Source: Deltaproteobacteria bacterium
GTDB taxonomy: Bacteria; Desulfobacterota; Syntrophia; Syntrophales; UBA2210
Length of the DNA stretch: 32,000 bases
NCBI GenBank assembly: GCA_030603465.1
Contig: JAUVXT010000002.1
Location: 1 to 32,000, forward strand
Direction: 5' to 3'
Shown here: positions 893-30,256 of the stretch, piece after piece
Position numbering within the stretch: position 1 is the stretch's first letter
Layout: every line of letters starts with the position of its first letter
Notes under the pieces: model-generated
Seen by the model: the letters and a program-made list of their open reading frames with translations, nothing else
Databases searched by the model: none
Told to the model about the DNA's origin: nothing
Made by a program: the position numbers and the translations under genes

Positions 893-1022
893 AAAAGGGT
901 CTGAGATTTACCTGTTGGGCGCTTGTGATGGCTGTGGCGTAACGTGCAATCTTTTTTATCGAGAATTAGCATAGGCAAAGGTTGTCGTTATTGATTTTCT
1001 GACGATTTTACGACGTTTTGAG

Positions 1023-1073
1023 CTGAACAGCGAGCACATTCCCCGCTGCTTGCGGCGGGGTTAGCGAGCGAAC
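1023..1073 (+). repeat. Intergenic structured repeat R1, copy a (CTGAACAGCGAGCRCATT + GC hairpin + TTAGCGAGCGAA)
   Basis: Near-identical copies occur at 12349-12400 and 31790-31844, and a partial copy at 31915-31946. The hairpin is CCCCGC (1041-1046) / GCGGGG (1055-1060) with loop TGCTTGCG. Confidence 0.75.
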
Positions 1074-1181
1074 ATAAAATAATTTATCTCTTTCGCATTT
1101 AAGTTGATGAACCGTCGCATAAACGCCTTTTGCTTGTCTAAGATGCTTTTTGATAAATCGAAGGCTTGCTACAGGCGATTT

Positions 1182-1214
1182 AAAGAATCATCATGTTATC
1201 CATGATGATTCTTT
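1182..1214. promoter_or_regulatory. Perfect 14-bp inverted repeat AAAGAATCATCATG-N5-CATGATGATTCTTT, candidate operator
   Basis: The two arms are exact reverse complements (checked by hand). The right arm overlaps the -35 of the promoter candidate at 1213-1242. Confidence 0.45.
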
Positions 1215-1242
1215 GAAAGGTAAGGAAGGTTTCAGTTATATT
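1213..1242 (+). promoter_or_regulatory. Sigma70-like promoter candidate for the cupin-to-TRAP operon
   Basis: -35 TTGAAA (1213-1218), 18-nt spacer, -10 TATATT (1237-1242). Each hexamer matches consensus at 5 of 6 positions. It lies about 170 nt upstream of the first ATG of the operon. Confidence 0.35.
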
Positions 1243-1410
1243 CGTTCGCCTTCGCTCACTGTTCTTTTCAAAACTCGCCCTTCGGGTTCAGGCAGTTTAA
1301 ATCGCTATCCTTCCGCTTCGCCAAGATTTATTCTAACGCTCAAAGGTATTTATGCTTGAACAACTTTATCACGAAAGAACCAAATATATTGTCTAGGAGG
1401 TTTGACGCAT

Positions 1411-1896
1411 ATGAAAAAGTACGAGGAAAAGATTACGATCAACGGTAGCAATATTTCTGTTGCCCGCACAGATAATCCCACCAATGTGGATTATATAGCA
1501 GGAGATTTGAAGCTTTTGACATACGACATAACGGATCCCAAGTTGAAACCCGAAAATTTTGACAAACCGGGCGGAACGCCCATGACTCTCTTTAAGGCAG
1601 ACGCACTGAGAGTTGACCTCTCCAAACGTACGAAGGAAGCGATGAATTTTTGGCACAGGAGTTGTGACTTTCACGAGTTGATTTTCTGTTTTAAGGGCTC
1701 AATTATATGGGAAACCGAGCTCGGCAATGCGGAATTGAAGGCCGGGCAGATGATGATTATACCCAAGGGGGTGGCACACAGGTCCAGCCCCGGGCAGACT
1801 GAGAGCGAAAACATCATAGTAGAGTTAAAGATATATTCCGATTCCATCGAGGAAGTGGTTCAGGGAATCGATATAGCAAAGAGAGTGAGGGATTGA
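1411..1896 (+). CDS. Cupin-fold protein of unknown specificity
   Basis: Cupin motif 2, G-x5-P-x-G-x2-H, is present (GQMMIIPKGVAHRS). Motif 1 is partial, E-x6-G (HELIFCFKG). An AGGAGG lies 10 nt upstream of the ATG at 1411. The ORF-track TTG at 1402 is too close to that RBS. Confidence 0.7.
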   Translation: MKKYEEKITINGSNISVARTDNPTNVDYIAGDLKLLTYDITDPKLKPENFDKPGGTPMTLFKADALRVDLSKRTKEAMNFWHRSCDFHELIFCFKGSIIWETELGNAELKAGQMMIIPKGVAHRSSPGQTESENIIVELKIYSDSIEEVVQGIDIAKRVRD

Positions 1897-1897
1897 T

Positions 1898-3304
1898 ATG
1901 GGAAAGAGGACGGCGGATCTTTTGATAAAAAATGCCGACTGGATCATTACCATGGATGGAGAAAGGCGGATCATCAGGGACGGCGCAATTGCCGTGAAGG
2001 GTGATACCATCCTGGATATCGACAAGACCGATATTGTGGAAAGTCGTTATGGTGCAGAGAAAACCATCACTGCAGAGGACAGGGTGGTAATTCCCGGCAT
2101 GATCGACAGTCATGTCCATTCGGCATTTCAACTGAGTCGTGGGTTGGCCGATGAAGTGGGGGAGCAAAAATTCCTCTTTGAAAGGATGTATCCCTATGAA
2201 GGCTGCATGGATGATGAAGATACTTATTGGAGCGCTGTCCTCTGCACTCTCGAACTTCTGAAACATGGGGTGACCTGTTTCGTAGATCCGGGAAATTACC
2301 GCATAGATGAAACGGCAAAGGCCGTTGAAGAATCGGGCATGCGGTGCATCGTTGCGAAAAGCAGCTTTGATATTGGAAAGTCCTCTTTTGGAAGTATTCC
2401 GGAGGCATGGATCGAAACGACGGAAGAAGCCCTGGAGAGAGCGGAGACCGTCATAGAAAAATGGCATGGCAAAGCGGATGGACGAATCCGGGCATTTGCC
2501 TCTTTCAGAGGGTTAAACAACTGTACCGACCAGCTTATTCAGGGTTTGAAGGAGATTGCCGATAGGCACAATACGGGGATCCAGACCCACTGCGCCTTTG
2601 CCCAGAAAACGAGAGACATGTCACTGGACAAGTTTGGTATGACCGAGGTGGAGCGTCTTGAAAGACTTGGTGTACTGGGACCTAACGTGCTTCTGGGGCA
2701 TGTGGGGTGGCTCACACCCGCCGAGCTTCTTTTGATGCAGAAGAGAGAGGTGTGCGCGGTGGCGTGTCCCAGTTCTACCTTTCACAACGGCTACGGAAAT
2801 ATCACCATGGGACATATTCCCGAATTACTCGAGATGGGTCTTTCCGTTGGAGTCGGGTCGGACCACGCATCATCGGGCATTGTCGACATGTTGCAGGAAT
2901 TGCGTATCGTCGGTATGGGCTTCAAGGAGACACGGATCGATCCCAAGATAATGCCGCCGGAAAGGGTCTTTGAAATGGCCACCGTCAATGGCGCAAAGGG
3001 CGCCCTCTGGGATAAGGAGATAGGAACTCTTGAAGCCGGCAAAAAGGCCGACATTGTCATGTTTAACACCATGAGGCCCGAATGGATGCCCCTCTACAAC
3101 AATCCCCTTGTCAATCTTGTCTACAGTGCTACGGGAAGTAGTGTAGATACGGTCATCGTGGCCGGGAACATCCTCGTTGCAAAGGGTGAAGCGGTATCGA
3201 TCGATGAGGGCAAAGTGTATGCCGAAATTAAGAGACTGACGGGGAAAATCCTGGCAAAGACGGGGTTGGGACCGATTATAAAACCTAAATGGAAGGTAGT
3301 GTAA
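1898..3304 (+). CDS. Amidohydrolase-superfamily aminohydrolase/deaminase (ATZ/TRZ, MtaD, SsnA-like; COG0402 type)
   Basis: HxH metal motif in the typical context (VIPGMIDSHVHSAFQLSRGLADE). Downstream His and Asp positions (GIQTHCAF, LLGHVGW, VGVGSDHA) also fit. The length of 468 aa is typical. The start lies 1 nt after the cupin stop. Confidence 0.85.
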   Translation: MGKRTADLLIKNADWIITMDGERRIIRDGAIAVKGDTILDIDKTDIVESRYGAEKTITAEDRVVIPGMIDSHVHSAFQLSRGLADEVGEQKFLFERMYPYEGCMDDEDTYWSAVLCTLELLKHGVTCFVDPGNYRIDETAKAVEESGMRCIVAKSSFDIGKSSFGSIPEAWIETTEEALERAETVIEKWHGKADGRIRAFASFRGLNNCTDQLIQGLKEIADRHNTGIQTHCAFAQKTRDMSLDKFGMTEVERLERLGVLGPNVLLGHVGWLTPAELLLMQKREVCAVACPSSTFHNGYGNITMGHIPELLEMGLSVGVGSDHASSGIVDMLQELRIVGMGFKETRIDPKIMPPERVFEMATVNGAKGALWDKEIGTLEAGKKADIVMFNTMRPEWMPLYNNPLVNLVYSATGSSVDTVIVAGNILVAKGEAVSIDEGKVYAEIKRLTGKILAKTGLGPIIKPKWKVV

Positions 3305-3318
3305 GGAGAACTTTAAAA

Positions 3319-3873
3319 ATGAAGATAGTCGTTGGTATATCGGGAGCCTCGGGGGTGCAGTATGGGATCCGGTTTTTGGAGGTCTGTCGGTCGTTGAAGA
3401 TTGAAACTCACCTGGTGATATCTGCCTGGGGGAGGAAAAACATTGAACTGGAAACCGACTGTAGCGTCAGTCAGGTTTGCTCGCTGGCATCTAAAAATTA
3501 CGAAAAGGAAGACCTCGCGGCGGCGATATCAAGCGGGTCATTCAGGCATGACGGGATGGTTGTAATACCTTGCAGCATGAAATCTGTGGCGGCTATAGCA
3601 AACGGGTATACGGAAAATCTGCTTCATCGCGCCGCCGATGTGACACTCAAGGAAAGACGGAAACTGATACTGATTCCCAGGGAGACGCCTCTCAGTGTCA
3701 TCCATCTGGAGAATCTTTTAAAACTGGCCCGTTCGGGCGCAATCATACTTCCGCCAATGCCCGCCTTTTACAATAAACCCAAAACCCTGGAAGACATTAT
3801 CGACCATCTGGTTGGGCGCGTGCTGGATCATCTCGGTGTGGATCATGAGTTGGTCAATCGATGGGGTGAATAG
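3319..3873 (+). CDS. ubiX: Flavin prenyltransferase UbiX (prFMN synthase)
   Basis: Classic N-terminus MKIVVGISGASG, plus the PCSMKSVAAIANG and LILIPRETPLS blocks. The length of about 184 aa fits. An AAGGAG RBS lies upstream of the ATG at 3319. Confidence 0.9.
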   Translation: MKIVVGISGASGVQYGIRFLEVCRSLKIETHLVISAWGRKNIELETDCSVSQVCSLASKNYEKEDLAAAISSGSFRHDGMVVIPCSMKSVAAIANGYTENLLHRAADVTLKERRKLILIPRETPLSVIHLENLLKLARSGAIILPPMPAFYNKPKTLEDIIDHLVGRVLDHLGVDHELVNRWGE

Positions 3874-3932
3874 ATTGCTGAGCGAAGTACAACTGTGAAA
3901 TATCAAAACCAATCAAGTGTGAGGTGACAAGA

Positions 3933-5375
3933 ATGGTACATGTGGAAACAACTGCTGGTAGTTCTTTAGACGGATTATTCAAGGCTGAAGGCATTGCTAT
4001 TATCGGGGCTTCGTCCAAGGTGGGAAAGCCGGGGAACAAGATCGTCGAATATGCCCTGGAGTTGGACTTTAAGGGGGAGATATATCCCATCAATCCGGGT
4101 GCTGAGGAAATCATGGGGTTAAAATGCTACAGGGACCTGGAGGCCATTGAAGGGAAAGTGGATATAGTCGTGGTGGTGCTGCACTCTGACGACTGCGTTA
4201 CGGCGGCTCAGAAGATCGCGCAGAGAAAGGATGAAAAGGGCGATATTTCCGTGGTGGTGGTTGTCTCCGGCGGGTTCAGCGAACGGGGAGACGAAGAGGG
4301 GAGAGAAAGGGAAAAAGCCTTGCTCGAACCCCTGATGTCAAGAGGGATCCGGGTTGTCGGCCCCAACTGTCAGGGGATCATAGATACCTATCAGGGGATA
4401 AATACGACCTTTGATGTGGGGAAATACAAGAAGGGGGGATTGTCCGTCATCACGCAGAGCGGGGCCTTTGCCGTTTCCTACCTCATGTGGGCCGATCCTC
4501 TGGGGATGTTGGGATTGAGCAAGTTCGTGTCTGTGGGCAATATGAGGGATGTAAGCGCCATAGATCTCCTTAACTATTTTGCCGACGATGAGAGTACCAA
4601 GGTGATCGCCCTCTATCTGGAAGGCGCAAATGAGGCGAGGAAGCTGATAGAAACGGCTGCCGAGGTGTCGAAGAAAAAACCTATCGTAACCATGAAGGCC
4701 GGCAGAACAGAGTTGGGAGGCCGCGCCGCCCAGAGCCACACAGGCTCCATTGCGGGGAGCTTCGAAATGTACAAGGGGGCCTTTCGCCAGTCCGGTGTGA
4801 TTCAGACCTTCAATGTGCCGGAATTTTATCATACGGCGGCGGCATTCTCGAAAATGCCCATGCCCAAGGGCAACCGCGTCTGTGTTTTGACCGTTGTCGG
4901 CGGCCCGGGGACACTCTGTGTAGATGAACTGATTACATCGGGTGTCGTCGAACTGGCGAAACTCTCGGAGGAGACAAAATCACGCCTCAAAGAGATACTG
5001 GCGCCAACGGCAAATGTGGGTAAACCTGACGGCTATATAGACATGACGGGCTCGGTGAGTGAGACCCTTCATAAGGAGGTGTTCAAAATCGTTCTCAGTG
5101 ACAAGAATATCGACGGTGTTATCTATCTGACGACTCCGCCCGCCTTCCTCGATGAGGAACTGCTGGCGAAAAATATAGTGTCGGCCTATCAATCCTTCCC
5201 CGAAGAAGAGAGAAAACCGGTGCTTTCGGTATTGCTCTATGGATTCTCGGTTGCGAAAGGGAGGAGGATTATGGAGGATGCCGACATGCCGACGCTCGAC
5301 TATCCCGATACGGCCGCTCAGGTGATGGCAAACATGATCAGATACAGTCAATATCGTTCGAGAAATAACTGCTAG
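3933..5375 (+). CDS. ADP-forming (NDP-forming) acyl-CoA synthetase, alpha subunit (CoA-binding and CoA-ligase domains)
   Basis: LFKAEGIAIIGASSKVGKPG CoA-binding Rossmann start, GPNCQGI, and a phosphohistidine loop AAQSHTGSIAG. The ATG at 3933 is preferred over the GTG at 3924 because GAGGTG lies 6 nt upstream. Confidence 0.85.
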   Translation: MVHVETTAGSSLDGLFKAEGIAIIGASSKVGKPGNKIVEYALELDFKGEIYPINPGAEEIMGLKCYRDLEAIEGKVDIVVVVLHSDDCVTAAQKIAQRKDEKGDISVVVVVSGGFSERGDEEGREREKALLEPLMSRGIRVVGPNCQGIIDTYQGINTTFDVGKYKKGGLSVITQSGAFAVSYLMWADPLGMLGLSKFVSVGNMRDVSAIDLLNYFADDESTKVIALYLEGANEARKLIETAAEVSKKKPIVTMKAGRTELGGRAAQSHTGSIAGSFEMYKGAFRQSGVIQTFNVPEFYHTAAAFSKMPMPKGNRVCVLTVVGGPGTLCVDELITSGVVELAKLSEETKSRLKEILAPTANVGKPDGYIDMTGSVSETLHKEVFKIVLSDKNIDGVIYLTTPPAFLDEELLAKNIVSAYQSFPEEERKPVLSVLLYGFSVAKGRRIMEDADMPTLDYPDTAAQVMANMIRYSQYRSRNNC

Positions 5376-5421
5376 ACGTGAACCGATTATCAGTTCCAGA
5401 CAATATTAGTGGAGGTCAAAA

Positions 5422-6117
5422 ATGGGTTATAGAGAAATAATAGAGCGCGCCATAGATACGGGGAGAGAGGTTCTCCCTGAACATGAGGCCTATCAGGTAT
5501 GTGAAGAATTCGGTATCGCCTATCCGCCGACCAGGTTTGCGACGACCCGGGAAGAGACAGTGGAAGCGGCAGAAAGCCTGGGCTATCCCGTCGTGCTAAA
5601 GATTGTCTCGCCGGCAGTGGTTCACAAATCTGATGCGGGGGGAGTCATCGTCGGTATCGTCTCTCAGTCGGAGCTCAAGGATGCCTACGATCTTTTATTT
5701 GCCAATGTGAAGGAGAAGGTGGGCGACGTGCCCATTGACGGCGTGCTGATACAAAAGGCTATGCCGAAGGCCGCAGAAGTTGTCGTGGGCGGCCTGAAGG
5801 ATGATCTCTTCGGTCCTGTCGTCATGTTCGGTTCCGGGGGAATCCTGGTGGAGATATTCAAGGATGTCTCTTTCAGGCTGGCGCCTCTAGACAGGGACGA
5901 AGCCATGAGGCAAATCAAGGAGACGAAGGCCTACGAAATATTAAAGGGTGTCAGAGGCGCACCTCCGAGTGATCTGGATGCCCTGGCCGATCTGATTGTG
6001 AATGCGGGAAAATTGTTGTCCGCCCTTCCTGAAATTAAAGAGCTCGATTTTAATCCTGTCTTTGCCGGTTCCGATGGTTCTGTTGTTGTCGATGCCAGGA
6101 TGGTAATAGGGAGTTGA
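5422..6117 (+). CDS. ADP-forming acyl-CoA synthetase, beta subunit (ATP-grasp domain)
   Basis: ATP-grasp_5-type sequence (GYPVVLKIVSPAVVHKSDAGGV ... ELDFNPV). The size of 231 aa matches the split archaeal-type beta subunit. A GGAGG RBS is present. Confidence 0.85.
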   Translation: MGYREIIERAIDTGREVLPEHEAYQVCEEFGIAYPPTRFATTREETVEAAESLGYPVVLKIVSPAVVHKSDAGGVIVGIVSQSELKDAYDLLFANVKEKVGDVPIDGVLIQKAMPKAAEVVVGGLKDDLFGPVVMFGSGGILVEIFKDVSFRLAPLDRDEAMRQIKETKAYEILKGVRGAPPSDLDALADLIVNAGKLLSALPEIKELDFNPVFAGSDGSVVVDARMVIGS

Positions 6118-6122
6118 TCGAA

Positions 6123-8543
6123 ATGAAAAAAGTGAAACGCTGGGTGTCACAGGATATTCCCAGGCTGGAAAATGGCAGGCTCTTAACGGGTAGTGGGCGA
6201 TTCATTGCCGACATGACCCCCGTTTCGAACATGCACTACGCCGCGATCCTCAGAAGTCCCTATGGCCACGCCCTCATTAAGAGTATAGATACAAAAGAAG
6301 CAAGAAACTTCCCCGGCGTAGTAGATGTGTTGACGGGTGAAGACGTCAAGGATATGTCGGACCCATTTCCCGTGCTCTCCGATAAGGGTAAGGAATATTA
6401 CTCCATGGCCATCGATAAGGTCCGCTTCGTTGGTGAACCGGTGGCCGTAGTCGTGGCGAGAGACAGATACACGGCGGAAGATGTCCTCGATCTCATTGAA
6501 GTGAACTATGAACCATTGCCGGTAGTTACCTGTCCCGAAAAGGCGATGGAGCCCGATGCCCCTCTCCTGCACGAAAAGTCGGGTACCAATGTGGCACTTC
6601 ATCGGTTACTGAGTTATGGCGATGTTGATTCGGCCTTTGATGGGGCCGATGTCACGGTAAAAGAGCGGATTGTGTACCCGAAGATTTCACCCACGCCCAT
6701 GGAGACCAATGGCGTTATCTGTAGTTTTGATTTTCACACAAAACTCCTCACCTGTTGGTGCGGCTTTCATGGTCCCTACAGCCTTCATGCGGTGATGACC
6801 AAGGCCTTGAGACTCCCCAGCAACAAGGTCCGCGTTATCGTTCCCGCCGATGTGGGAGGGTCATTCGGCGTGAAGATCCCTTCCTATTCCTACATCCTTC
6901 CCATAGCACTGGCCTGTCGCAAGGCGGGGGTCCCCGTCAAGTGGATAGAGGATCGCCGTGAAAACCTTATGGCAAGTTCAAGTGGTGTTGATCGGGTGGC
7001 CTATGTCGAAATGGCCGCGACAAAGGAGGGAATATTCACGGGTCTGAGAATGAAGATAATGGATAACGTCGGCGGCTACATGCGGGCGCCGGAACCGGGG
7101 TGTCTGTTACGCCCACTGGGAAACCTGACATCAGCCTACGGAATAAAAAATGTCAGCATGGATGGTTATGTTGTTGTGACGAATAAGTCGCTTACCGGTC
7201 CCACACGGGGATATGCCTGTCAGCACCTCTACTTCGGCATCGAGAAATGTGTCGAGAGGATTGCCGAAAAACTTTCTCTCGATCCAGCGGAGTTGAGGCG
7301 GAAAAATTTGATACTGCCCCATCAGCTACCCTATACGACGCCGACAGGGGGAATATACGATGCCGGCGATTACCCCAAGGCGTTCGATCTACTCCTTGAA
7401 CTCAGTGAGTACGACGCATTCCGGAAAGAACAGAAGCGGGCGAGAAAAGAGGGGCGCTTCATCGGCATAGGTATCGCTGTGGGAATCGATCCCTCAACTT
7501 CCAATATGGGTTATATTCAGGCGGCGCTCCCTGCGGAAAAACGATCGCCTGCCAGACAGCTATCGGGGTGTGCACAGGCAACGACCATATTTATCGACCA
7601 CGGTGGTAACGTTAATGTGGAATTGAGTACCGTTTCTCATGGTCAGGGACACGAGACGGTCATAGCGCAGACGGTGGCCGACGAATTGGGGATATCTCCC
7701 TACGATATTACTGTCATCGGCGGTATGGATACGAGTACACGGGCATGGACTATTCCTTCGGGTGCCTACTCCAGTCGTTTTGCCTCTGTGGGCCCTGCCT
7801 CGGCGGCAATGGCGGCCAGGAAACTTCTCGATAAGATGCTCAAGATCGCCGCCCATCTCTTTGGCGTAAGTGCAGAAGAGGTGACAACGGAAGAGGGACA
7901 ATTTTATGTGAGAGATAATCCCGAGAAGAGAATCGGAATCAGGCGTATCGCATCGGTTGCACACTGGGACCCACACTCTCTGCCTGAAGGCATGGAACCG
8001 GGTTTGACGGCAACATATTATTTCAACATACCCGTTGCAAAACCTATCGATGGGGAAGACAGGGTAGATTCATCGGCAACCTATGGGTTTACATCCGATA
8101 TGGCCATAGTGGAAGTGGATGGTGAAACGGGAGAGGTAAAGATACAAAAATATATCTCCGTTCATGATGCCGGCACCATTCTACATCCGGGCATAGCGGA
8201 GGGGCAGGTGCGTGGTTCCATAATGCATGGCGTGGGCAGCGCGCTCTATGAAGAACTGAAGTATGATGAGCACGGCCAGTTTCTTACCGCCAGTTTTGCC
8301 GATTATCTGGTTCCGACGGCTATGGAGGCGCCTGAAATAAAGACGGGACACATCGAGACGCCTTCGCCCTTGACGATTCTGGGATCGAAGGGAATAGGCG
8401 AGGCGAGCAGCCAGACGGCGCCCATTGCAATAGTCAATGCAGTCGAAGATGCGCTGGCACCTTTGGACATAAAGATCAACACAATGCCCTTGAGTTCCGA
8501 TTATATATGGAGGCTTATGGAAGAAAAGAAGAAAGAGAAATGA
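6123..8543 (+). CDS. Xanthine-dehydrogenase/CoxL-family molybdopterin-binding large (catalytic) subunit, with no adjacent FeS or FAD subunits
   Basis: N-terminal RLENGRLLTGSGRFIADM, DKVRFVGEPVAVVVA, VGGSFGVK, KWIEDRRENL, SVHDAGTILHP and the C-terminal catalytic Glu context GSKGIGEAS. It is a paralogue of the subunit at 15803-18229. Confidence 0.9.
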   Translation: MKKVKRWVSQDIPRLENGRLLTGSGRFIADMTPVSNMHYAAILRSPYGHALIKSIDTKEARNFPGVVDVLTGEDVKDMSDPFPVLSDKGKEYYSMAIDKVRFVGEPVAVVVARDRYTAEDVLDLIEVNYEPLPVVTCPEKAMEPDAPLLHEKSGTNVALHRLLSYGDVDSAFDGADVTVKERIVYPKISPTPMETNGVICSFDFHTKLLTCWCGFHGPYSLHAVMTKALRLPSNKVRVIVPADVGGSFGVKIPSYSYILPIALACRKAGVPVKWIEDRRENLMASSSGVDRVAYVEMAATKEGIFTGLRMKIMDNVGGYMRAPEPGCLLRPLGNLTSAYGIKNVSMDGYVVVTNKSLTGPTRGYACQHLYFGIEKCVERIAEKLSLDPAELRRKNLILPHQLPYTTPTGGIYDAGDYPKAFDLLLELSEYDAFRKEQKRARKEGRFIGIGIAVGIDPSTSNMGYIQAALPAEKRSPARQLSGCAQATTIFIDHGGNVNVELSTVSHGQGHETVIAQTVADELGISPYDITVIGGMDTSTRAWTIPSGAYSSRFASVGPASAAMAARKLLDKMLKIAAHLFGVSAEEVTTEEGQFYVRDNPEKRIGIRRIASVAHWDPHSLPEGMEPGLTATYYFNIPVAKPIDGEDRVDSSATYGFTSDMAIVEVDGETGEVKIQKYISVHDAGTILHPGIAEGQVRGSIMHGVGSALYEELKYDEHGQFLTASFADYLVPTAMEAPEIKTGHIETPSPLTILGSKGIGEASSQTAPIAIVNAVEDALAPLDIKINTMPLSSDYIWRLMEEKKKEK

Positions 8544-8644
8544 TGCATGAAGATTAAAAAGGTCTATCGTTAGGCAAAGCTGCACGGTGGAACTTTTTTT
8601 ATGAGCCCACAATAATTGATTAAAATATTTAGGAGGGTTGTTTT

Positions 8645-10114
8645 ATGGAAGATTTGAGAAGCTGGATAAAACTTTTGGAAGATGAAGGTGAACTGGCAAG
8701 GATCACTACGGAGGTTGACTGGAACCTGGAAATCGGCGCAATTTTACGCAAGGTTATGGACAAAGGCGGGCCAGCTATCCTCTTTGAGAATATCAAAGAT
8801 TACAAGGATACTATCTCTACAAAGATGTTCGCCCACGGCCTAAACAGAAAGACCTTTCCCCTTGCCCTCGGGAAGCCAAAGGATACGAAGCGTGACGAAT
8901 TATCACAAATATTCAGAGATGCGATCCACAATCCCGTTATGTATAAAACCGTCGAGTCGGGCCCTGTAAAAGAGAATAAAATTACCGGCTCCGACATTGA
9001 TTTGTACCAGTTCCCCACGCCTATGTGGCACTCGCCTGATGGCGGCAGATATATGATGACGTGGTGTGCGGTTATAACGAGGGACCCTGATACAGGAGAA
9101 CATAACGTCGGCGCCTATCGCGGAATGCTGACCGCTAAAGATCAGATGTCGGTGCTGATAATATTATCACAGGGGTGGGGTGTTCACTTTTCAAAGTACT
9201 GTCAGCGTCAGGAGAAGATGCCCATTGCCGTTGTCTGGGGCTATGAGCCCACGCTTGGTATCGTCGCGGGAAGTCAGATCCCCATGGGGATGGATGAATA
9301 CAAGGTGATGGGAGCCCTTAGAGGCGAGCCCGTACCCCTTGTGAAATGTGAAAACTCGGAGATAATGGTCCCCGCCTCTGCCGAACTGGTAGTCGAAGGG
9401 TATGTAGATCCCGATCCCACGAACTATGCCATGGAAGGTATCTTTGGCGAATATACGGGATACTACGGTGGTGCGCGGAGGCCCCGTCATACCTTGCAGG
9501 TTGAATGTATTACGCACAGGAATGATCCGATTTTCCGCGGCAGCATGGAGGGATCGGGTCCGGGGCATCCCAATGAGAATACCTGGATTTACGCGGTTAC
9601 AAGCAAGGTGAATTTCATGGAGGCGCTGGAGAGGGCCGGTGTGCCGGGAATCATTGATGTCAGGCCGGGACCCGTCTGTTATGTCAAGATCAGGCAGGCG
9701 TACAATGGTCATGCCAAGCAGGTTGCCAATGCTCTCTGGGGTTCATGGTCTGCCGAATGGATGTACAAGGTACTTGTCGTAGTCGACCATGATATCGATA
9801 TAAATGATCATCGGCAAATCGACTGGGCCCTCTGTTACCGTATGGAACCCGGCACACACGATATTATCACAATGCCTCATACCCGCGGGGGCGGCCTGGA
9901 TCTGGCAGAATACGATGACACGCTCTTCGGAACGGGGAGTCGTGGAAGGATACTCCTTGATGCGACAAGAGATATAAAAAAGGCAAAGCGCGATAAATAT
10001 GGGAACCTTGATTGGGGACCATTTTCCTACGATCTGGATGAGCCGGAAAAAGAGCTGATCGAGAGAAGATGGGATGAATATGGAATCAAACTGCCTGAAA
10101 GAAAGAAGAGATAA
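8645..10114 (+). CDS. ubiD: UbiD-family prFMN-dependent (de)carboxylase
   Basis: Typical N-terminus DLRSWIKLLEDEGELARITTEVDWNLEIGAI, plus VGAYRGM and the EGIFGEYTGYYG active-site block. Length is 489 aa. An AGGAGG RBS is present. Confidence 0.9.
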   Translation: MEDLRSWIKLLEDEGELARITTEVDWNLEIGAILRKVMDKGGPAILFENIKDYKDTISTKMFAHGLNRKTFPLALGKPKDTKRDELSQIFRDAIHNPVMYKTVESGPVKENKITGSDIDLYQFPTPMWHSPDGGRYMMTWCAVITRDPDTGEHNVGAYRGMLTAKDQMSVLIILSQGWGVHFSKYCQRQEKMPIAVVWGYEPTLGIVAGSQIPMGMDEYKVMGALRGEPVPLVKCENSEIMVPASAELVVEGYVDPDPTNYAMEGIFGEYTGYYGGARRPRHTLQVECITHRNDPIFRGSMEGSGPGHPNENTWIYAVTSKVNFMEALERAGVPGIIDVRPGPVCYVKIRQAYNGHAKQVANALWGSWSAEWMYKVLVVVDHDIDINDHRQIDWALCYRMEPGTHDIITMPHTRGGGLDLAEYDDTLFGTGSRGRILLDATRDIKKAKRDKYGNLDWGPFSYDLDEPEKELIERRWDEYGIKLPERKKR

Positions 10115-10128
10115 AGAGGTAAATGAAT

Positions 10129-10179
10129 ACAGGGCAGTATGATTGGTGGTTTTTCTCGCTGTTAGTAATGCTGTCCTGT
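10129..10179 (+). terminator. Long imperfect stem-loop after ubiD (possible terminator or attenuator)
   Basis: ACAGGGCAGTA pairs with TAATGCTGTCCTGT (11 pairs including 2 G-U) around a 26-nt loop. A T-rich tract follows, but this is not a canonical intrinsic terminator. Confidence 0.25.
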
Positions 10180-10282
10180 TTCCAACATTTGGTTTATTTA
10201 CATGATTTTCGGAGTGAAAGACGTGCTCTGCGGGTAACCGGTCGGGAATTATAGATAGGCTGAAAGGAAAAGGAATTGGAGA

Positions 10283-12184
10283 ATGATCTTAGAGAAAGAA
10301 AAAACAGGTTTTAAGGATTTTATCTCGGCAGGCGCTTTAATCGCTATTGCCTGGTCGCTTTATCAGTTATATCTGGTCATTTTTGGCTTTCAGGTAGGAT
10401 ATCTGCAGAGACCCCTGCACCTGGTATTTGCGCTTGCTTTGACCTTCTTTCTCCGTCCCCTTGCTCGCGCTGAAATAAGCTGGATCAAATCCATAAAGGG
10501 CCTTGCAGTCACCATTGATGCCGGTTTAATTGCTTTATGCTTTGCAATCGGGATTTATGTAATGATCAGCTTACCGCGGATAGTGACGCGGATGCAGTAC
10601 GTAGATGATCTTTACAAACTGGATTATTTTTTCGCGATTATAGCGATATTGTTGGTCATGGAGGCATGCAGGCGTTTGCTGGGCTGGAGCCTTGTAATAG
10701 TGGGGGTGATTTTTATTGTCTATGGATTCATCGGACCCTGGATACCGGGAGGCCTTTCCCACAACGGGATATCGTTTCGGCACTTCATAGATATGAATTT
10801 CCTTACGGTGCAGGGGATGTACGGTATTCCCATCGGAGTCTCCGTTCGATATGTCTTCTATTTTGTACTCTTTGCTGCATTTCTGGAATTGTCGGGCGGT
10901 GGTGATCTCTTTATAGATCTGGCGAGACGATTGACGGGGACCACCCGTGGAGGATCGGCCAAGACGGCCGTTGTGGCGAGCAGCCTTATGGGGACGATCA
11001 GCGGCAGCGCCGTGGCCAATACGGTGGGAACAGGTGTCTTTACGATTCCACTGATGAAAAAATCGGGATACACATCCACCTTTGCAGGGGCAGTGGAGGC
11101 CACGGCATCCACGGGCGGGCAGATAATGCCGCCCATAATGGGTGCGGCGGCCTTTGTCATGGCTGAAATGGTGGGGGTTCCCTATTTGAAAATCATGGAG
11201 ATAGCCGTAATCCCGGCCATTATCTTTTACATTTCAATATTTGCTATTGTGGATCTTAAGGCCCAGAAAGATGGAATCTTGGGCATGAAAAAGAGTGAGC
11301 TCCCCACATTCAGGAGTATCTACAGGCGAATCCATTTAATTATACCCCTTATTGTGTTAGTGACGTCTATAATATCGGGGTCTACCATAATGATGGCGGC
11401 TTTCAGGAGTATTGTCACTGTGGTCATAGTGAGCTGGATAAGACAAGAGGATCGCCTTGGGCCGTATCAAATATTGAAGGCCCTGCAAAAGGGTGCTGAA
11501 AAGGCCCCTGTTATAGCCGTTCCTGCGGCATTGGCCGGAATTATTGTCGGTGTTGTCACCTATACAGGACTTGGACTCAAGTTCAGTTATCTGGTATTAG
11601 CAGTGTCTGGAGGTCACCTGCTTCTTGCGCTATTTCTTGTGATGATAACCTGTATTATCCTCGGAATGGGAATGCCCACGACTGCGGCTTACATACTGGG
11701 TGCCGTGATCATGGCGTCAGTCTTGCAGGATCTGGGAATCAATCGTTTGGCCGCCCACATGTTCATCTTTTATTTTGCTATTCTTTCTATGGTAACACCT
11801 CCCATAGCGCTTTGCGCCTATGCGGCGGCAGGCATTGCCGGCAGCAATATAATGCGCACGGGAGTCCAGGCCTTTGCGCTAAGCCTGGCCGGATTTATGG
11901 TTCCATATGTCTTTGTCTTCAATAACGCTCTTCTCATGCAGGGATCGGTATTAGAGGTACTGGGGGTTTCAATTAGTTGCGCATTCGGAGTGTGGGCACT
12001 GGCGGGCGTTGTAGTGGGGTATTTTTTCGGAAGATTGAATTATATGACTCGCCTTATACTCCTGGTTGCAGCCGTTTCTCTGGTTTCTCCTCAACTTGTA
12101 ACCGATGCGATTGGGATATCCTTGATCATTGCTGTTATAGGAATTCAAAACTTCTTAATGAAATTCACAAAAGTAAAAACTTAG
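10283..12184 (+). CDS. TRAP transporter fused permease (4TM/12TM fusion, TAXI-type)
   Basis: The 633-aa protein is highly hydrophobic and multi-spanning. It has DctM-like blocks (GGSAKTAVVASSLMGTISGSAVANTV, TGGQIMPPIMGAAAF). No binding-protein gene is adjacent. Confidence 0.8.
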   Translation: MILEKEKTGFKDFISAGALIAIAWSLYQLYLVIFGFQVGYLQRPLHLVFALALTFFLRPLARAEISWIKSIKGLAVTIDAGLIALCFAIGIYVMISLPRIVTRMQYVDDLYKLDYFFAIIAILLVMEACRRLLGWSLVIVGVIFIVYGFIGPWIPGGLSHNGISFRHFIDMNFLTVQGMYGIPIGVSVRYVFYFVLFAAFLELSGGGDLFIDLARRLTGTTRGGSAKTAVVASSLMGTISGSAVANTVGTGVFTIPLMKKSGYTSTFAGAVEATASTGGQIMPPIMGAAAFVMAEMVGVPYLKIMEIAVIPAIIFYISIFAIVDLKAQKDGILGMKKSELPTFRSIYRRIHLIIPLIVLVTSIISGSTIMMAAFRSIVTVVIVSWIRQEDRLGPYQILKALQKGAEKAPVIAVPAALAGIIVGVVTYTGLGLKFSYLVLAVSGGHLLLALFLVMITCIILGMGMPTTAAYILGAVIMASVLQDLGINRLAAHMFIFYFAILSMVTPPIALCAYAAAGIAGSNIMRTGVQAFALSLAGFMVPYVFVFNNALLMQGSVLEVLGVSISCAFGVWALAGVVVGYFFGRLNYMTRLILLVAAVSLVSPQLVTDAIGISLIIAVIGIQNFLMKFTKVKT

Positions 12185-12348
12185 AACGCTTAAGAAGTTG
12201 GTTCTTTTGATGTTAGCCCCGGCCACCACCAGGCGACCGATTTATCCACTTTACCTCGATAAATTTGTGGAATAATCAAGATGATAAAAAGTGTATGATG
12301 CGGCCAAAGTGGTACGTAACGTGTCGCTTTTGTCAGAGATCCAGCTTT

Positions 12349-12400
12349 CTGAACTGAACAGCGAGCGCATTCCCCGCTGCTTGCTGCGGGGAGCTTCAAT
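12349..12400 (+). repeat. Intergenic structured repeat R1, copy b (variant ending AGCTTCAAT)
   Basis: CTGAACTGAACAGCGAGCGCATT + CCCCGC (12372-12377) / GCGGGG (12386-12391) + AGCTTCAAT. It has the same orientation as copies a and c. Confidence 0.75.
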
Positions 12401-12570: not shown

Positions 12571-13296
12571 ATGAAGGATGTTAATTTACTCATACCCAGA
12601 TCAAAATCGCTAAAGGAAAGGGCGTATGATGTCCTGAAAGAGTTAATCTTTACCGGAAAGTTGGAACCGGGAAATCTTTATAATGAAAGTAGGCTTGCAG
12701 AGAGTATGGGAGTCTCCCGAACGCCTGTTAGAGAGGCCCTCCTGGAACTGAGCAGGGAGGGGATGGTAACATTTATGCCTGGCAAGGGTGTTAGGGTGCA
12801 AAAGATTACAAAGGCGCAGGTTCGGGATGTCTATGAGATACGTAAGATAATAGAAGGTTATGTCATCAAAAAAATTACCAGACAGCTTACTTCTTCAGAC
12901 CTGACAAAAATTCGAAATATTATTGTAAAGCAGGAAAAAACGTCTGAAAGAAAAGACAAACTTGCATTTATCAAAACCGATCGTGAAATGCACTTTTACC
13001 TATCCTCCAAGCTGGGGAACAGGCAGATGGATACGGTGCTATTTAACCTCAGAGATCAGATTCAGCGTATGGGAATAAAGGCCGTTGAAGAGGACAACAG
13101 ATCTCTACAGGTAATCGGGGAGCATTACGAAATTCTATCGGCGCTTGAAAGAAAGAATGAAAGAGAGGCCTATGATAAGTTGATGCGGCATCTATGTAAT
13201 TCGGAGGAGAATCTGGTTTCCAGTATTGATGAAGATGAAGATGAAGATGATGGTGTTGGTAATGATGATTTAATACAACACGACATAAGGAGGTAG
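12571..13296 (+). CDS. GntR/FadR-family transcriptional regulator with an acidic C-terminal tail
   Basis: wHTH block (LYNESRLAESMGVSRTPVREALLELSREGMV) plus an FCD-like domain. The tail is DEDEDEDDGVGNDD. The stop lies 7 nt before the ligase start. Confidence 0.85.
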   Translation: MKDVNLLIPRSKSLKERAYDVLKELIFTGKLEPGNLYNESRLAESMGVSRTPVREALLELSREGMVTFMPGKGVRVQKITKAQVRDVYEIRKIIEGYVIKKITRQLTSSDLTKIRNIIVKQEKTSERKDKLAFIKTDREMHFYLSSKLGNRQMDTVLFNLRDQIQRMGIKAVEEDNRSLQVIGEHYEILSALERKNEREAYDKLMRHLCNSEENLVSSIDEDEDEDDGVGNDDLIQHDIRR

Positions 13297-13303
13297 TGTC
13301 ACA

Positions 13304-14941
13304 ATGGAAAGCCATGTGGGATACGATACTTTTTTACAGATGGATAGTCACGGGTTTTACAAGTTGGAAATTCCCGAAAAATTGAATATGGCCAGGCAGA
13401 CAGTTGACTACTGGGCGGATCACGGAAGGGCTCAAGATGTGGCAATCTATTATAAAGACGAGGAAATAACTTACGGAGAGCTCAAGGATCTTACCGATAG
13501 ATTCGGTGCCGGTTTCCATAAAATGGGAGTTTCTAAAGGAGATTGCTACGTTATCAGGACTCCGAATCAGCCCGAATACGAAGTTGCATTCCTTGGAGGG
13601 CAGAAAATCGGGGCCATTCCCATTCCTACGAACATTATGTTGCGCGAAGGCGAATTGGTGCACATTATCAACAATAGCGAATCCGTTGCCGTTATCACCA
13701 CTTCTCAATACATTCAGGCGATTGAAAATATACGCCCCAAATGCAAAACACTGAAGTACGTCATAGTGATCGGAGAAACAGAGGGGGGTCAAATCTCATT
13801 TAATGATCTTATAAAAGAAGATGGTACGGCCCTCCCCTATGTGGAGACCCATAAAGATGATCCGGCATACTTCCTCTATACCTCGGGGACGACGGGAGCT
13901 CCGAAGGGCGTTGTGCATGCCCACCGCTTCATAATTGGAGCGGGTGATCCTATCGGAAAGTTTGCCATGGGGGTCCAGCGAGGCGACATATGCAGCGGTC
14001 CCACGGCTCTTACCTGGATGTATGCCCTTGGTCACAATTTCCTCTTTTCCCGGAGATGGGGCATCTCAACGGCTATCTATTATGATGAGCGTTTCAACAA
14101 GGAACGGACCTTTGAATTTATTGAGAGATACAAGCTGACGCACTTTATAGGCACCCCGACCATATACAAGATGTTGATGTCTATTAAAGATGCTGAAAAG
14201 AAATATGATACGAGTACGTTAAAGCAGTGTCTCAGTTCCGGTGAACCCCTTTTGGCGGAGACTGCCAGGGAATGGAAGAGGCGTTTCGGACTCGATATTC
14301 TTGACAGTATGGGTCAGACTGAGGCTCATGAATTCTGCACGACACAGGTGAACTTGAATATAAAAGTAGGGTCAATGGGAAAACCCCTTCCCGGAATCGA
14401 GGTGGCAATTGTCGATGACAACGGTGAGCGCCTTCCCCCCAACGAACTGGGGCATCTGGTTCTCAGGCGGGATCATCCGGGTCTTTTAAGAGAGTATCAC
14501 AAGAGTCCGGAACTTATGGAAGAAGTAACTTTTCCAAATAATTGGTATGACACGAAAGACTTGGCCTATATGGACGAGGACGGATATTTTTGGTATGGAT
14601 CTCGTTCTGATGATATTATGACTTGTCACGGTTATCGTATTTCTCCCTCTGATGTGGAGACGGCCCTGCAGGAACATGAGAAGGTCTTCGAGGCCGGTGT
14701 TGCGGGAGTTAAAGATCCCGAAATGGGGGACAAGGTGAAGGCGTGGGTCGTTCTTCACGAAGGATATGAAGGCTCTGAAGAGCTTGCAAAGGAACTCCAG
14801 GACTTCGTTAAGAAAACGATTGCGCCCTACAAATTTCCGAGAGAGATCGAGTTTATCAAGGAACTTCCCAAGAATTCGGCGGGAAAGATTCTGCGCAGGG
14901 AGTTGAGGCGATGGGAAAAAGAGAAGCTTGAAGGAAAATAA
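13304..14941 (+). CDS. AMP-forming aryl/acyl-CoA ligase (benzoate-CoA ligase-like adenylating enzyme)
   Basis: AMP-binding signature YTSGTTGAPKGV, GEPL, the hinge YDTKDLAYMDEDGYFWYGSRSDD, and a C-terminal PKNSAGKILRREL with the catalytic Lys. An AAGGAGG RBS is present. Confidence 0.9.
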   Translation: MESHVGYDTFLQMDSHGFYKLEIPEKLNMARQTVDYWADHGRAQDVAIYYKDEEITYGELKDLTDRFGAGFHKMGVSKGDCYVIRTPNQPEYEVAFLGGQKIGAIPIPTNIMLREGELVHIINNSESVAVITTSQYIQAIENIRPKCKTLKYVIVIGETEGGQISFNDLIKEDGTALPYVETHKDDPAYFLYTSGTTGAPKGVVHAHRFIIGAGDPIGKFAMGVQRGDICSGPTALTWMYALGHNFLFSRRWGISTAIYYDERFNKERTFEFIERYKLTHFIGTPTIYKMLMSIKDAEKKYDTSTLKQCLSSGEPLLAETAREWKRRFGLDILDSMGQTEAHEFCTTQVNLNIKVGSMGKPLPGIEVAIVDDNGERLPPNELGHLVLRRDHPGLLREYHKSPELMEEVTFPNNWYDTKDLAYMDEDGYFWYGSRSDDIMTCHGYRISPSDVETALQEHEKVFEAGVAGVKDPEMGDKVKAWVVLHEGYEGSEELAKELQDFVKKTIAPYKFPREIEFIKELPKNSAGKILRRELRRWEKEKLEGK

Positions 14942-14953
14942 TTATTTTACGAG

Positions 14954-15661: not shown

Positions 15662-15708
15662 CCTTTAGTAAGTTAGAAAGTATTTTCTGCGTTTTCCGGC
15701 AGAGAGTA

Positions 15709-15746
15709 ATTTCGTTAACGCACTTATCCCGTTTATCGGGGTTAGG
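15709..15746 (+). repeat. Intergenic repeat R2, copy a
   Basis: ATTTCGTTAACGCACTTATCCCGTTTATCGGGG is the reverse complement of 31862-31898, with one mismatch over the 34-nt core (hand alignment). Confidence 0.7.
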
Positions 15747-15802
15747 TAGTTCCACGATGAAAAATGAGGGTAGTTGATGACTAAATTGTTAAGGAGAAGG
15801 TT

Positions 15803-18229: not shown

Positions 18230-18251
18230 CATATATTAAAGGAGAATTATT

Positions 18252-18683: not shown

Positions 18684-18709
18684 TAAAACGAAAGTATAGG
18701 AGAAAGGAA

Positions 18710-19594: not shown

Positions 19595-19595
19595 G

Positions 19596-26774: not shown

Positions 26775-26807
26775 ATAATACCCGGATATTTCGGACAATA
26801 ATCTTAC

Positions 26808-26839
26808 GGGACCTCTGGAATTATTCTTTCAGGGGTCTC
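26808..26839 (+). terminator. Possible intrinsic terminator after the CoA-transferase genes
   Basis: GACCTCTG pairs with CAGGGGTC (8 bp including one G-U) around a 13-nt loop, followed by a T-rich stretch. This is a weak call. Confidence 0.25.
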
Positions 26840-26898
26840 ATATTGATGTTATTTCAGAGAGAACAAGCGATAAGACTTTATCGGGAGGAAAACATGAT

Positions 26899-29304: not shown

Positions 29305-29306
29305 GT

Positions 29307-30131: not shown

Positions 30132-30199
30132 ACGGCGGCATTGACGACGATGAATGTCGATTCACATAAACTAAAAACTGAATTTCCGATATGCGGCAT

Positions 30200-30229: not shown

Positions 30230-30256
30230 GTATTATTACCTTTGAAGGAGGGTTTG

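Follow-up and report, generated by a model that had tools for sequence, protein, structure and literature searches.

Positions 1411–12184 of contig JAUVXT010000002.1, within the full 32-kb stretch that was analysed (hereafter the window), carry an operon of eight genes encoding a cupin-like protein, an amidohydrolase, UbiX, a split NDP-forming acyl-CoA synthetase, a molybdenum hydroxylase subunit, UbiD and a TRAP permease. With slightly better than even confidence, and on the basis of sequence comparison, the operon is read as a set for the oxygen-independent, CoA-dependent catabolism of a heteroaromatic carboxylic acid, which would follow the plan of the hmf cluster and the Trudgill pathway. 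The invariant core of the set is the Mo hydroxylase together with amidohydrolase and cupin. A preliminary description of this DNA had proposed a catabolic unit for a (hetero)aromatic acid, comprising uptake, CoA activation, (de)carboxylation dependent on prenylated flavin mononucleotide (prFMN) and Mo-dependent hydroxylation; as a co-conserved unit, this is supported by the recurrence of the genes reported below.

To our knowledge, the genes by which small N-, O- and S-heteroaromatic acids are degraded anaerobically are for the most part unidentified; routes have been assigned to genes only for furoate, which is degraded aerobically, and, from 2025 on, for lumazine. Such acids include pyrrole-, thiophene- and pyridine-carboxylates, which originate from hydroxyproline, spore dipicolinate, alkaloids, cofactors and Maillard products. 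The design of the operon is a variation on hmf and, conceptually, also on the lumazine cluster, and is not a new category. Its new elements are an amidohydrolase that lacks the catalytic glutamate and is accompanied by a cupin, a sister clade of HmfA, a UbiD clade linked to CoA activation, an ADP-forming synthetase and a host that is probably a strict anaerobe.

Gene content and recurrence of the operon

All eight genes are located on the forward strand. In order, they encode a cupin-like protein of 161 aa (1411–1896; sub-threshold Pfam match, AlphaFold2 (AF2) model and Foldseek), an Amidohydro_1 protein of 468 aa (1898–3304; Pfam and NCBIfam), a UbiX flavin prenyltransferase (3319–3873; TIGR00421), the alpha subunit (3924–5375; CoA-binding and ligase-CoA domains in Pfam) and the beta subunit (5422–6117; ATP-grasp_5 in Pfam) of an NDP-forming acyl-CoA synthetase (ACD), a molybdopterin large subunit of the xanthine dehydrogenase (XDH)/CoxL family termed MoL1 (6123–8543; Pfam and homology to HmfA), a UbiD-family prFMN-dependent (de)carboxylase (8645–10114; Pfam and TIGR00148), and the fused DctQM permease of a TAXI-type TRAP transporter (10283–12184; TIGR02123). 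Pfam and NCBIfam back the family calls of the preliminary description for every gene except the cupin, whose support came from structure prediction; its title named the right families, in the order of a family list and not of the genes. None of the operon proteins reaches an NCBIfam equivalog cut-off, so that only family-level names are justified.

The intergenic gaps measure, in order, 1, 14, 50, 46, 5, 101 and 168 nt. Listing of the open reading frames (ORFs) and analysis of starts and gaps bore out the earlier account of eight same-strand genes with gaps of 1–168 nt, and the spacings given there, 1 nt between cupin and amidohydrolase and 5 nt between the ACD beta stop and the MoL1 start, are exact. 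Shine-Dalgarno sequences, previously seen at most of the genes, were confirmed; a GGAG-type motif is found 5–10 nt upstream of all eight starts. For UbiX, the longest ORF begins at 3289; orthologues of 184 aa in two related loci (L001 and L093) favour the start at 3319.

The neighbourhoods of UbiD, cupin and amidohydrolase relatives were compared in loci denoted by L numbers, and nine lineages were distinguished (the window with L093; L001; L005; L008; L017; L088; L090; L096; L097). No identical protein turned up when the UbiD of the window was looked up exactly; the nearest locus found, L093, shows 95–99% amino-acid identity to the window, and L001 (about 88%) is fully syntenic both in the operon and in the second module downstream of it. 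L005 (about 77%) carries the same set in another order (ACDa-ACDb-MoL-cupin-amidohydrolase-UbiD), the order ACDa-ACDb-MoL being retained although the rest is shuffled. The order in L008 (about 50–55%) is cupin-amidohydrolase-GntR-SDR-AMP ligase-UbiD-MBL-MoL-cupin-amidohydrolase-FAD-FeS-CoxG, and in L096, from the cultured Alteribacillus sp. YIM 98480, it is cupin-amidohydrolase-MBL-MoL-FAD-FeS-CoxG-AMP ligase-UbiD-TAXI binding protein (FAD and FeS denoting the FAD and 2Fe-2S subunits of the Mo enzyme). The alphaproteobacterial metagenome-assembled genome (MAG) L017 has SDR-enoyl-CoA hydratase (ECH)-ACAD-LysR-UbiD-UbiX-hydrolase-MoL-FAD-FeS-cupin-amidohydrolase. On the 1.3-Mb contig L097, AMP ligase-ACDa-ACDb-CoxG-FAD-FeS-MoL-amidohydrolase-XdhC-NifS-MocA-Amidohydro_2-ECH-cupin follow one another without a UbiD, the MoL being 59% identical to MoL1. 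In the more distant loci L088, L090 and L092, cupin-amidohydrolase is found by FeS-MoL-FAD, Amidohydro_2 and/or a distant UbiD, with no CoA ligase.

Cupin, amidohydrolase and an XDH-family Mo enzyme were present together in all nine lineages, with shuffled gene order. Six of the nine also encode a CoA synthetase. It is of the ADP-forming kind in the window lineage and L005, of the AMP-forming kind in L008 and L096, and of both kinds in L097. UbiD/UbiX is a frequent but dispensable addition. Because the same gene set recurs in unrelated lineages, its arrangement is far beyond chance; conservation of the neighbourhood, which the preliminary description had named as a check, was found across about nine lineages despite the changes in order. 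The cupin and amidohydrolase genes are adjacent in eight of the nine, and a complex of the two proteins is suggested by five lineages in which the genes are overlapping or separated by 1 nt.

Alteribacillus is the cultured carrier of the set; the wider spread covers Desulfobacterota/Syntrophaceae-like MAGs, Acidobacteriota, Rokubacteria and Alphaproteobacteria. The 90%-identity cluster to which the amidohydrolase belongs contains entries named Syntrophaceae bacterium and Deltaproteobacteria bacterium, and in L093 an LDH/ETF module, which is typical of anaerobes, was found beside the gene of a TAXI solute-binding protein. The host is probably an uncultured Desulfobacterota-type lineage and a strict anaerobe. 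None of the GTDB species-representative genomes has a UbiD more than 54% identical to that of the window.

Two loci with relatives of operon genes deviate from intact gene sets. In L004 (2021–5606), whose UbiD is 75% identical, a truncated TRAP permease precedes UbiX, another, only distantly related UbiD (34%) and a 71-aa ORF. The second amidohydrolase copy of L008 (12299–13714) loses its similarity past about residue 350, either by a frameshift (pseudogene) or by an assembly error.

MoL1, UbiD and CoA synthetase in comparison with known systems

The canonical hmf cluster on plasmid pENH92 of Cupriavidus necator NH9 (L101) was used as comparator. Its gene order, UbiD-UbiX-TctC-GMC oxidase followed by Mo-FAD-FeS-AMP ligase-ECH, matches the published hmfFGH and hmfABCDE (PMC8091172, PMC3223595). 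MoL1 was aligned with HmfA of pENH92 at 42.5% identity over 786 aa with one gap, and the phmmer score was 661 bits; relatives of solved structure are CoxL (496 bits), quinoline oxidoreductase (Qor; 431 bits), the ketone dehydrogenase Kdh and, distantly, the 4-hydroxybenzoyl-CoA reductase subunit HcrA (235 bits). Judged by these alignments, the closest characterised relative of MoL1 is the furoyl-CoA dehydrogenase HmfA, and the likeness to hmf that had been noted earlier is now quantified, at 42% identity and a score of 661 bits, the best solved structure reaching 496. The motif of the catalytic Glu (GIGEAS) is present. The active-site loop reads RGYACQH in MoL1 orthologues, RGYGCQE in the paralogue MoL2 (15803–18229; 51% identical to MoL1 and 41.6% to HmfA) and RGFGGPQ in HmfA and the large subunit of L017, the latter being 55% identical to HmfA with CoxG fused to it. 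The C-terminal 200 aa of HmfA are likewise a CoxG domain, the counterpart of which is here a free-standing CoxG gene. By their sequences, the MoL1, MoL2 and HmfA types are sister specificities in one subfamily. MoL1 is proposed to be a heteroaryl-CoA hydroxylase; its action on a CoA ester is extrapolated, because the loop differs and the identity is below the 45% used as cut-off for hmfA orthologues (PMC8091172).

A carbon monoxide dehydrogenase (CODH) reading of MoL1 was rejected. One alignment had put a Cys at the Cu site; alignments with Qor and the O. carboxidovorans enzyme show an xRGxG/A loop. The CoxL loop of form I aerobic CODH, AYRCSFR with its Cu-binding Cys, is absent from MoL1, whose PTRGYACQ aligns best with AYRGVGF of Qor, and at 536 bits MoL1 is below the CODH equivalog cut-off of 991.

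The Mo subunit, described earlier as lone, is lone only inside the operon. Its partners, CoxG (18252–18683; Pfam), a FAD subunit of 294 aa (18710–19594; Pfam, 36% identical to HmfB) and a 2Fe-2S subunit (19596–20078; Pfam, 55% identical to HmfC), all on the + strand, are located about 10 kb downstream and are the sole electron-transfer partners in the window; they are presumably common to MoL1 and MoL2. In most other lineages the corresponding genes are adjacent to the MoL1 orthologue (L097, L096, L008 and L017).

Genes for XdhC, a NifS-like desulfurase and a MocA-type cytidylyltransferase were observed in or beside related clusters (L097, 11480–15004; L005, 108–1232). Such genes for maturation of the molybdenum cofactor near the relatives imply a sulfurated cofactor of the molybdopterin cytosine dinucleotide type, and none of the three kinds is encoded in the 32-kb window.

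With hmf of Cupriavidus basilensis HMF14 (hmfABCDE and hmfFGH), the operon would share its logic, i.e. a UbiD/UbiX funnel, CoA activation, a three-subunit XDH-family hydroxylase using water and ring opening to an oxo-dicarboxyl-CoA. The homology extends to MoL1 and MoL2 (each 42% to HmfA), the FeS and FAD subunits as given above and UbiX (49% to HmfG). In contrast to hmf, the CoA synthetase is a non-homologous ADP-forming one, a cupin and the Glu-less amidohydrolase are added, uptake is assigned to a TAXI-TRAP transporter, the FAD and FeS genes are placed in the neighbouring operon and the host is probably a strict anaerobe. An AMP ligase of the HmfD type is missing from the operon, that of the next operon being only 27% identical to HmfD, and no ECH-family ORF, as HmfE (the ECH-family 2-oxoglutaroyl-CoA hydrolase) would require, was found in the 32-kb window.

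If the substrate were a furan (2-furoate or 2,5-furandicarboxylate), the operon would be an anaerobe's Trudgill pathway, in which cupin and amidohydrolase would catalyse the enol-keto tautomerisation and the lactone hydrolysis, and ADP-forming synthetases or a CoA-transferase would recycle the thioester instead of HmfE. The amidohydrolase superfamily includes lactonases, and MoL1, FAD, FeS, CoxG and UbiX are all homologous to Hmf proteins. The strongest hint comes from L017, where the HmfA-type enzyme (55%, RGFGGPQ, fused CoxG) is encoded directly upstream of FAD-FeS-cupin-amidohydrolase; the chemistry of the pathway is O2-free (PMC3223595). A furan is nevertheless held to be decidedly unlikely: the active-site loop of the MoL1 orthologues is unlike that of HmfA, the UbiD is nearer to PhdA than to HmfF (29% identity), no HmfD or HmfE orthologue is present, and canonical hmf clusters function without cupin or amidohydrolase.

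The UbiD protein comprises the UbiD_N, UbiD and UbiD_C domains, scores 293 bits with TIGR00148 (cut-off 245) and has the invariant residues R159, E264 and E269 and the motif EGxFGEYTGYY. Among PDB entries, PhdA (7pda) was matched with 218 bits, PtHmfF (6h6x) with 190, E. coli UbiD with 190 and HudA with 177, and the weakest UbiD structures matched were those of phthaloyl-CoA decarboxylase (Pcd; 8oz5 and 8pmk; 67 bits, E 1e-17). Comparison with characterised proteins left PhdA as the nearest and placed the protein, as far as sequence can tell, outside every characterised clade. UbiX (TIGR00421, 269 bits vs a cut-off of 109) would make the prFMN for UbiD. All UbiD relatives of at least 50% identity adjoin a CoA-activating enzyme (ACD, AMP ligase or type III CoA-transferase), and for relatives of 40–47% identity such a neighbour was found in 7 of 44 only. 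Plasmid-borne UbiDs were all at most 36% identical to that of the window. Matches on Paracoccus and Agrobacterium plasmids were considered as lumazine-cluster genes and discarded; they are genes of O2-independent ubiquinone biosynthesis.

In anaerobic phthalate and isophthalate degradation, UbiD/UbiX is likewise found by a CoA-activating enzyme and uptake genes, and the UbiD relatives of 50–55% identity share that neighbourhood, with type III CoA-transferases or AMP ligases and an adjacent TRAP or MFS uptake gene. A pathway of this type would proceed by CoA ester formation, decarboxylation of an aryl-dicarboxyl-CoA by UbiD and modification of the aryl-CoA by the Mo enzyme, amidohydrolase and cupin serving an unrelated side reaction, and the AMP ligase of the next operon (13304–14941), just under the cut-off of the benzoate-CoA ligase family (NCBIfam benz_CoA_lig, 336 vs 375 bits), would agree with it. 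The reading is considered very unlikely. Phthalate and isophthalate systems, unlike the operon, have no Mo hydroxylase, amidohydrolase or cupin, and the lineage-wide tie of cupin-amidohydrolase to the Mo enzyme would be left unexplained; the UbiD reaches only the 67 bits to Pcd, HcrA is distant (235 bits), the 294-aa FAD subunit is without the additional length seen in HcrB-type subunits, and genes for benzoyl-CoA reductase or ring reduction are absent from the 32 kb. A paper on isophthalate degradation describes no comparable cluster.

All domains expected of an ADP-forming synthetase (CoA_binding, Succ_CoA_lig and ATP-grasp_5) are present in the ACD pair. ACD alpha scores 414 bits with TIGR02717, the equivalog of acetate-CoA ligase alpha (cut-off 567), its PDB relatives are 2csu and ACD1 (4xyl), and orthologues 63–96% identical were found in L097, L005, L001 and L093; ATP-grasp_5 of ACD beta scores 264 bits in Pfam. 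The domain set is that of archaeal ACDs and of 3-hydroxypropionate- and 4-hydroxybutyrate-CoA ligases, here split into alpha and beta. Compared with known NDP-forming synthetases, the gene context points to an aryl or heteroaryl acid as substrate, which is unusual for bacterial ACDs. Since irreversible AMP-forming ligases take the place of the ACD in L008 and L096, a role in activation rather than in ATP harvesting is argued for. The permease scores 660 bits with TRAP_fused (TIGR02123; cut-off 321) and is proposed to serve carboxylate uptake; the gene of the matching TAXI (NMT1_3) binding protein, which the fused permease requires, is outside the window itself and was found upstream of the regulator in L093 (95–99% identical).

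Cupin–amidohydrolase pair and proposed pathway

The amidohydrolase scores 172 bits with Amidohydro_1 (Pfam), and its AF2 model (pLDDT 90.5) superimposes on adenosine and isocytosine deaminases and on AtzA with TM values of 0.87–0.90. The metal ligands H72, H74, H231, H268 and D322 are all invariant. Fold and ligands (HxH, His, His, Asp) are those of the COG0402 deaminases and chlorohydrolases, such as 5-methylthioadenosine/S-adenosylhomocysteine (MTA/SAH), isocytosine and 8-oxoguanine deaminase, AtzA and TrzN, from which the protein differs by an identity of only 22–27%, an obligate small cupin neighbour and an invariant Phe in place of Glu. COG0402 deaminases and chlorohydrolases use the glutamate of the HxxE motif as proton shuttle for deamination or dechlorination. 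At this position, as aligned with PDB entries 4f0r and 4dzh, the subfamily has the invariant Phe234, and Phe replaces the HxxE Glu in 115 of the 120 closest cluster representatives. Because the replacement is family-wide, deamination of the substrate, a step in the preliminary description, is judged unlikely, and it appears more likely that the amidohydrolase and the translationally coupled cupin open the hydroxylated ring as a lactam or lactone hydrolase. The subfamily is broad (Thermodesulfobacteriota, Acidobacteriota, Rokubacteria, Acidimicrobiia, Sulfobacillus and Bacillaceae), and its members are labelled by JGI only as 'amidohydrolase' or MTA/SAH deaminase; in view of the missing residue, the second label is evidently a mis-annotation.

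That label is what speaks for regarding the amidohydrolase as an ordinary nucleobase or MTA deaminase and the eight genes as mere neighbours without a common pathway. The co-occurrence across phyla despite shuffled order, the absent catalytic Glu and a best NCBIfam equivalog score of 314 bits against a cut-off of 522 make this extremely improbable.

Amidohydrolase 'AHS' (PDB 6sj0–6sj4), crystallised with 3-hydroxyanthranilate, is among the structural neighbours of the protein. A COG0402-fold protein can, by this example, bind an aromatic amino acid.

The cupin is below the Pfam threshold (Cupin_2, 19 vs 27 bits). Its AF2 model (pLDDT 88) matches small cupins in Foldseek at a probability of 1.0, and the search returned generic small cupins only, with no functional analogue among them. 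A motif G-x5-P-x-G-x2-H and the triad His82/Glu89/His123 are invariant in a small family (23 representatives at E ≤ 1e-30 among 1.84 billion). The protein is proposed to act as a tautomerase/isomerase or as a non-catalytic subunit, in partnership with the amidohydrolase. An O2-dependent ring-cleavage dioxygenase was also considered, on account of the 2-His-1-Glu triad and weak HgmA_N matches, and was ranked low in view of a host that is probably strictly anaerobic.

In the pathway proposed, the order and direction of the reactions and the substrate were inferred, whereas the gene content, the families, the homology to Hmf proteins, the loss of the deaminase Glu and the co-conservation were observed directly. 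An anionic substrate would be imported by the TAXI-type TRAP transporter. UbiD, supplied with prFMN by UbiX, would remove a ring carboxyl group as a funnel step, acting on the free acid or on the CoA ester, and the split ADP-forming synthetase would form the heteroaryl-CoA thioester. MoL1, with the borrowed CoxG, FAD and 2Fe-2S subunits (18252–20078), would then use water to hydroxylate the ring carbon beside the heteroatom, and the cupin–amidohydrolase pair would bring about tautomerisation and hydrolytic opening of the lactam (or lactone) ring. The resulting open-chain 2-oxo- or 2-amino-dicarboxyl-CoA would enter central metabolism. In the Trudgill pathway, enol-keto tautomerisation is followed by 'spontaneous or catalysed' lactone hydrolysis, and the pair fits this plan because tautomerisation and ring hydrolysis are needed at exactly that point (PMC3223595).

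As substrate, an N-heterocycle such as a pyrrole- or pyridine-(di)carboxylate is favoured, since a lactam, unlike the lactone of the furoate route, would not open spontaneously and would call for a dedicated metal amidohydrolase; this choice we infer from the chemistry of ring opening. Of the earlier substrate guess, the 'N-heteroaromatic' part is accordingly plausible and the 'amino-substituted' part is without support. More specifically, and as a tentative proposal that is rather to be doubted than relied upon, cupin and Glu-less amidohydrolase may constitute a new two-protein, O2-independent enzyme that opens the lactam derived from an N-heteroaryl-CoA hydroxylated by MoL1 (pyrrole-2-carbonyl-CoA or pyridinecarbonyl-CoA). 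If true, the operon would be the first case of a CoA-dependent anaerobic pathway for nitrogen heteroaromatic acids that is defined at the genetic level, in which UbiD would funnel dicarboxylates in and ADP-forming synthetases would let thioester energy return as ATP.

Several observations weigh against the CoA-dependent, hmf-like pathway. A 2-His-1-Glu cupin usually marks a dioxygenase. UbiD is missing from the clusters of L097 and L088/L089 and, where present in the window, is not an orthologue of HmfF (29% identity and 153 bits to HmfF of pENH92); no CoA synthetase was found within 10 kb in L088, L090 or L017. MoL1 relies on subunits encoded in an operon with its own regulation, and it combines the loop RGYACQH, instead of RGFGGPQ, with an identity of 42% to HmfA, under the 45% orthologue cut-off (PMC8091172). 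The 32-kb window encodes no thioesterase of the HmfE type. The assignment of nitrogen to the ring derives from a single feature, the fold of the amidohydrolase.

The preliminary description knew two similar architectures, those of hmf and of the phthalate clusters. A third one exists in lumazine/pterin cluster I of Cupriavidus sp. LA-1 (Doi, Maeda and Takaya 2025), its defining parts being absent here; it includes a three-subunit XDH-family Mo dehydrogenase, UbiD/UbiX representing a new clade of decarboxylases, a COG0402 protein, transporters and regulators (PMC12391406). Its DHLI is a two-protein, amidohydrolase-type, ring-rearranging isomerase with one non-catalytic subunit, so that Mo hydroxylation, amidohydrolase ring chemistry and prFMN decarboxylation form a working design for an N-heterocycle (PMC12391406). 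As compared by description, cluster I differs from the operon in having no CoA chemistry, no cupin and purine permeases instead of TRAP, and its COG0402 protein is a true pterin deaminase, whereas that of the operon lacks the HxxE Glu.

Lumazine-type logic is the closest alternative to the CoA-dependent pathway. The free N-heterocycle would be hydroxylated by the Mo enzyme and then hydrolysed or rearranged to a heteroaryl carboxylate by the amidohydrolase, with the cupin as non-catalytic partner in the manner of the DHLI alpha subunit; UbiD would decarboxylate this carboxylate, and the CoA synthetase would act late, on an aliphatic product. Cluster I, in which the Mo dehydrogenase is found together with the two-subunit isomerase, UbiD/UbiX and the COG0402 deaminase (PMC12391406), lends it a precedent. 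It would also explain the loci L088, L090 and L092, where cupin-amidohydrolase and the Mo enzyme occur with Amidohydro_2 and/or UbiD but with no CoA ligase, and the missing deaminase Glu is compatible with a non-deaminating ring reaction. This alternative is nonetheless considered unlikely. The DHLI pair (two Amidohydro_2 proteins) and the CobW-like GTPase that always goes with it are not in the operon, the window having a single Amidohydro_2 17 kb downstream and no GTPase ORF in 32 kb; no purine- or xanthine-catabolic genes are nearby; the UbiDs of L090 and L092 share only about 30% identity with that of the window; and MoL1 is nearest to a CoA-ester hydroxylase and is translationally linked to the ACD.

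In the full-text literature covered, no pathway had been assigned to the gene set or its orthologues, as the preliminary description had supposed; most subscription journals are outside this coverage, and an earlier description is possible. Full texts on isonicotinate/citrazinate, N-heteroaryl-CoA and pyrrole- and thiophene-carboxylate contained no gene-level description. The aerobic dipicolinate (dip) cluster was considered and set aside as unrelated, being independent of the molybdenum cofactor and based on monooxygenases.

Three parts of the operon offer leads: a sister clade of furoyl-CoA dehydrogenase with another active-site loop, a UbiD clade associated with CoA activation and relevant to biocatalytic carboxylation, and a COG0402 subfamily without the deaminase glutamate and with a cupin partner, mis-annotated as MTA/SAH deaminase.

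Regulatory region, repeats and surrounding island

A regulator of the GntR/FadR family (GntR and FCD domains in Pfam) is encoded at 80–892 on the + strand and is the probable regulator of the operon; its true start is probably internal to the ORF. An orthologue with 94% identity occupies the same position in L093, with the TAXI solute-binding protein gene just upstream of it. The 518-nt non-coding stretch that had been noted in front of the operon corresponds to the leader at 893–1410 (+), which was examined by sequence, promoter scan and repeat search. Its best promoter-like site is at 1213–1242 (TTGAAA-18-TATATT). A perfect palindrome with 14-bp arms at 1182–1214, AAAGAATCATCATG-TTATC-CATGATGATTCTTT, overlaps the -35 element of this site and is a candidate operator for the upstream GntR/FadR regulator. 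The palindrome is kept in L093–L095 and not in L001, where the operon comes after the gene of an iron-containing alcohol dehydrogenase. Neither in the window nor in the leader did Rfam models match a riboswitch or any other RNA family.

The repeat element reported downstream of the operon was located at 12347–12391 (+) and forms its downstream boundary. It is a dispersed intergenic repeat with further copies at 1016–1092, inside the leader, and at 31787–31864, the three copies in the window bracketing the operon. Its core, CTGAACAGCGAGCRCATTCCCCGCTGCTTGC, is followed by a GC-rich hairpin, and from its sequence the element looks like a repetitive extragenic palindrome (REP) or a miniature inverted-repeat transposable element (MITE).

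The operon belongs, as one module, to an island that spans at least 32 kb and includes a second HmfA-like module. This second, hmf-like module (12571–20078, all genes on the + strand) consists of a GntR/FadR regulator at its start (12571–13296; Pfam), the benzoate-CoA-ligase-like AMP-forming ligase (13304–14941; Pfam and NCBIfam), a DUF2848 protein (14954–15661; Pfam), MoL2, CoxG, FAD and FeS, and may serve another substrate or carry out a further hydroxylation. The genes at 12571–15661 are syntenic in L001, and in L097 a 46% homologue of the AMP ligase adjoins ACD-MoL1.

Downstream of a Liv-type ABC transporter, the region 25046–31789 encodes a two-subunit CoA-transferase, a fused ADP-forming acyl-CoA synthetase, an Amidohydro_2-family protein (29307–30131, +; Pfam) and a glutamine-synthetase-like protein. 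Since the ACD-MoL1-amidohydrolase-cupin cluster of L097 includes a homologue of the Amidohydro_2 protein (56%), it is suggested that all 32 kb form one catabolic island. The protein is possibly a non-oxidative decarboxylase or a hydrolase, functionally linked to the operon through this co-clustering elsewhere.

A second short repeat of 37 nt, 95% complementary, forms an inverted pair at 15709–15745 and 31862–31898, both intergenic, and is also present in the leader of the near-identical L093 (about 9690–9725).

The best plasmid-borne homologue of the Amidohydro_2 protein (45%) was found on a haloarchaeal megaplasmid (L100, Halorussus vallis NZ_CP100001.1), near XdhC, two AMP ligases, an XDH L/S/M set, a PaaI thioesterase, a BenE transporter and an SRPBCC protein, and this locus may represent a related aryl-CoA/Mo-hydroxylase system in archaea.

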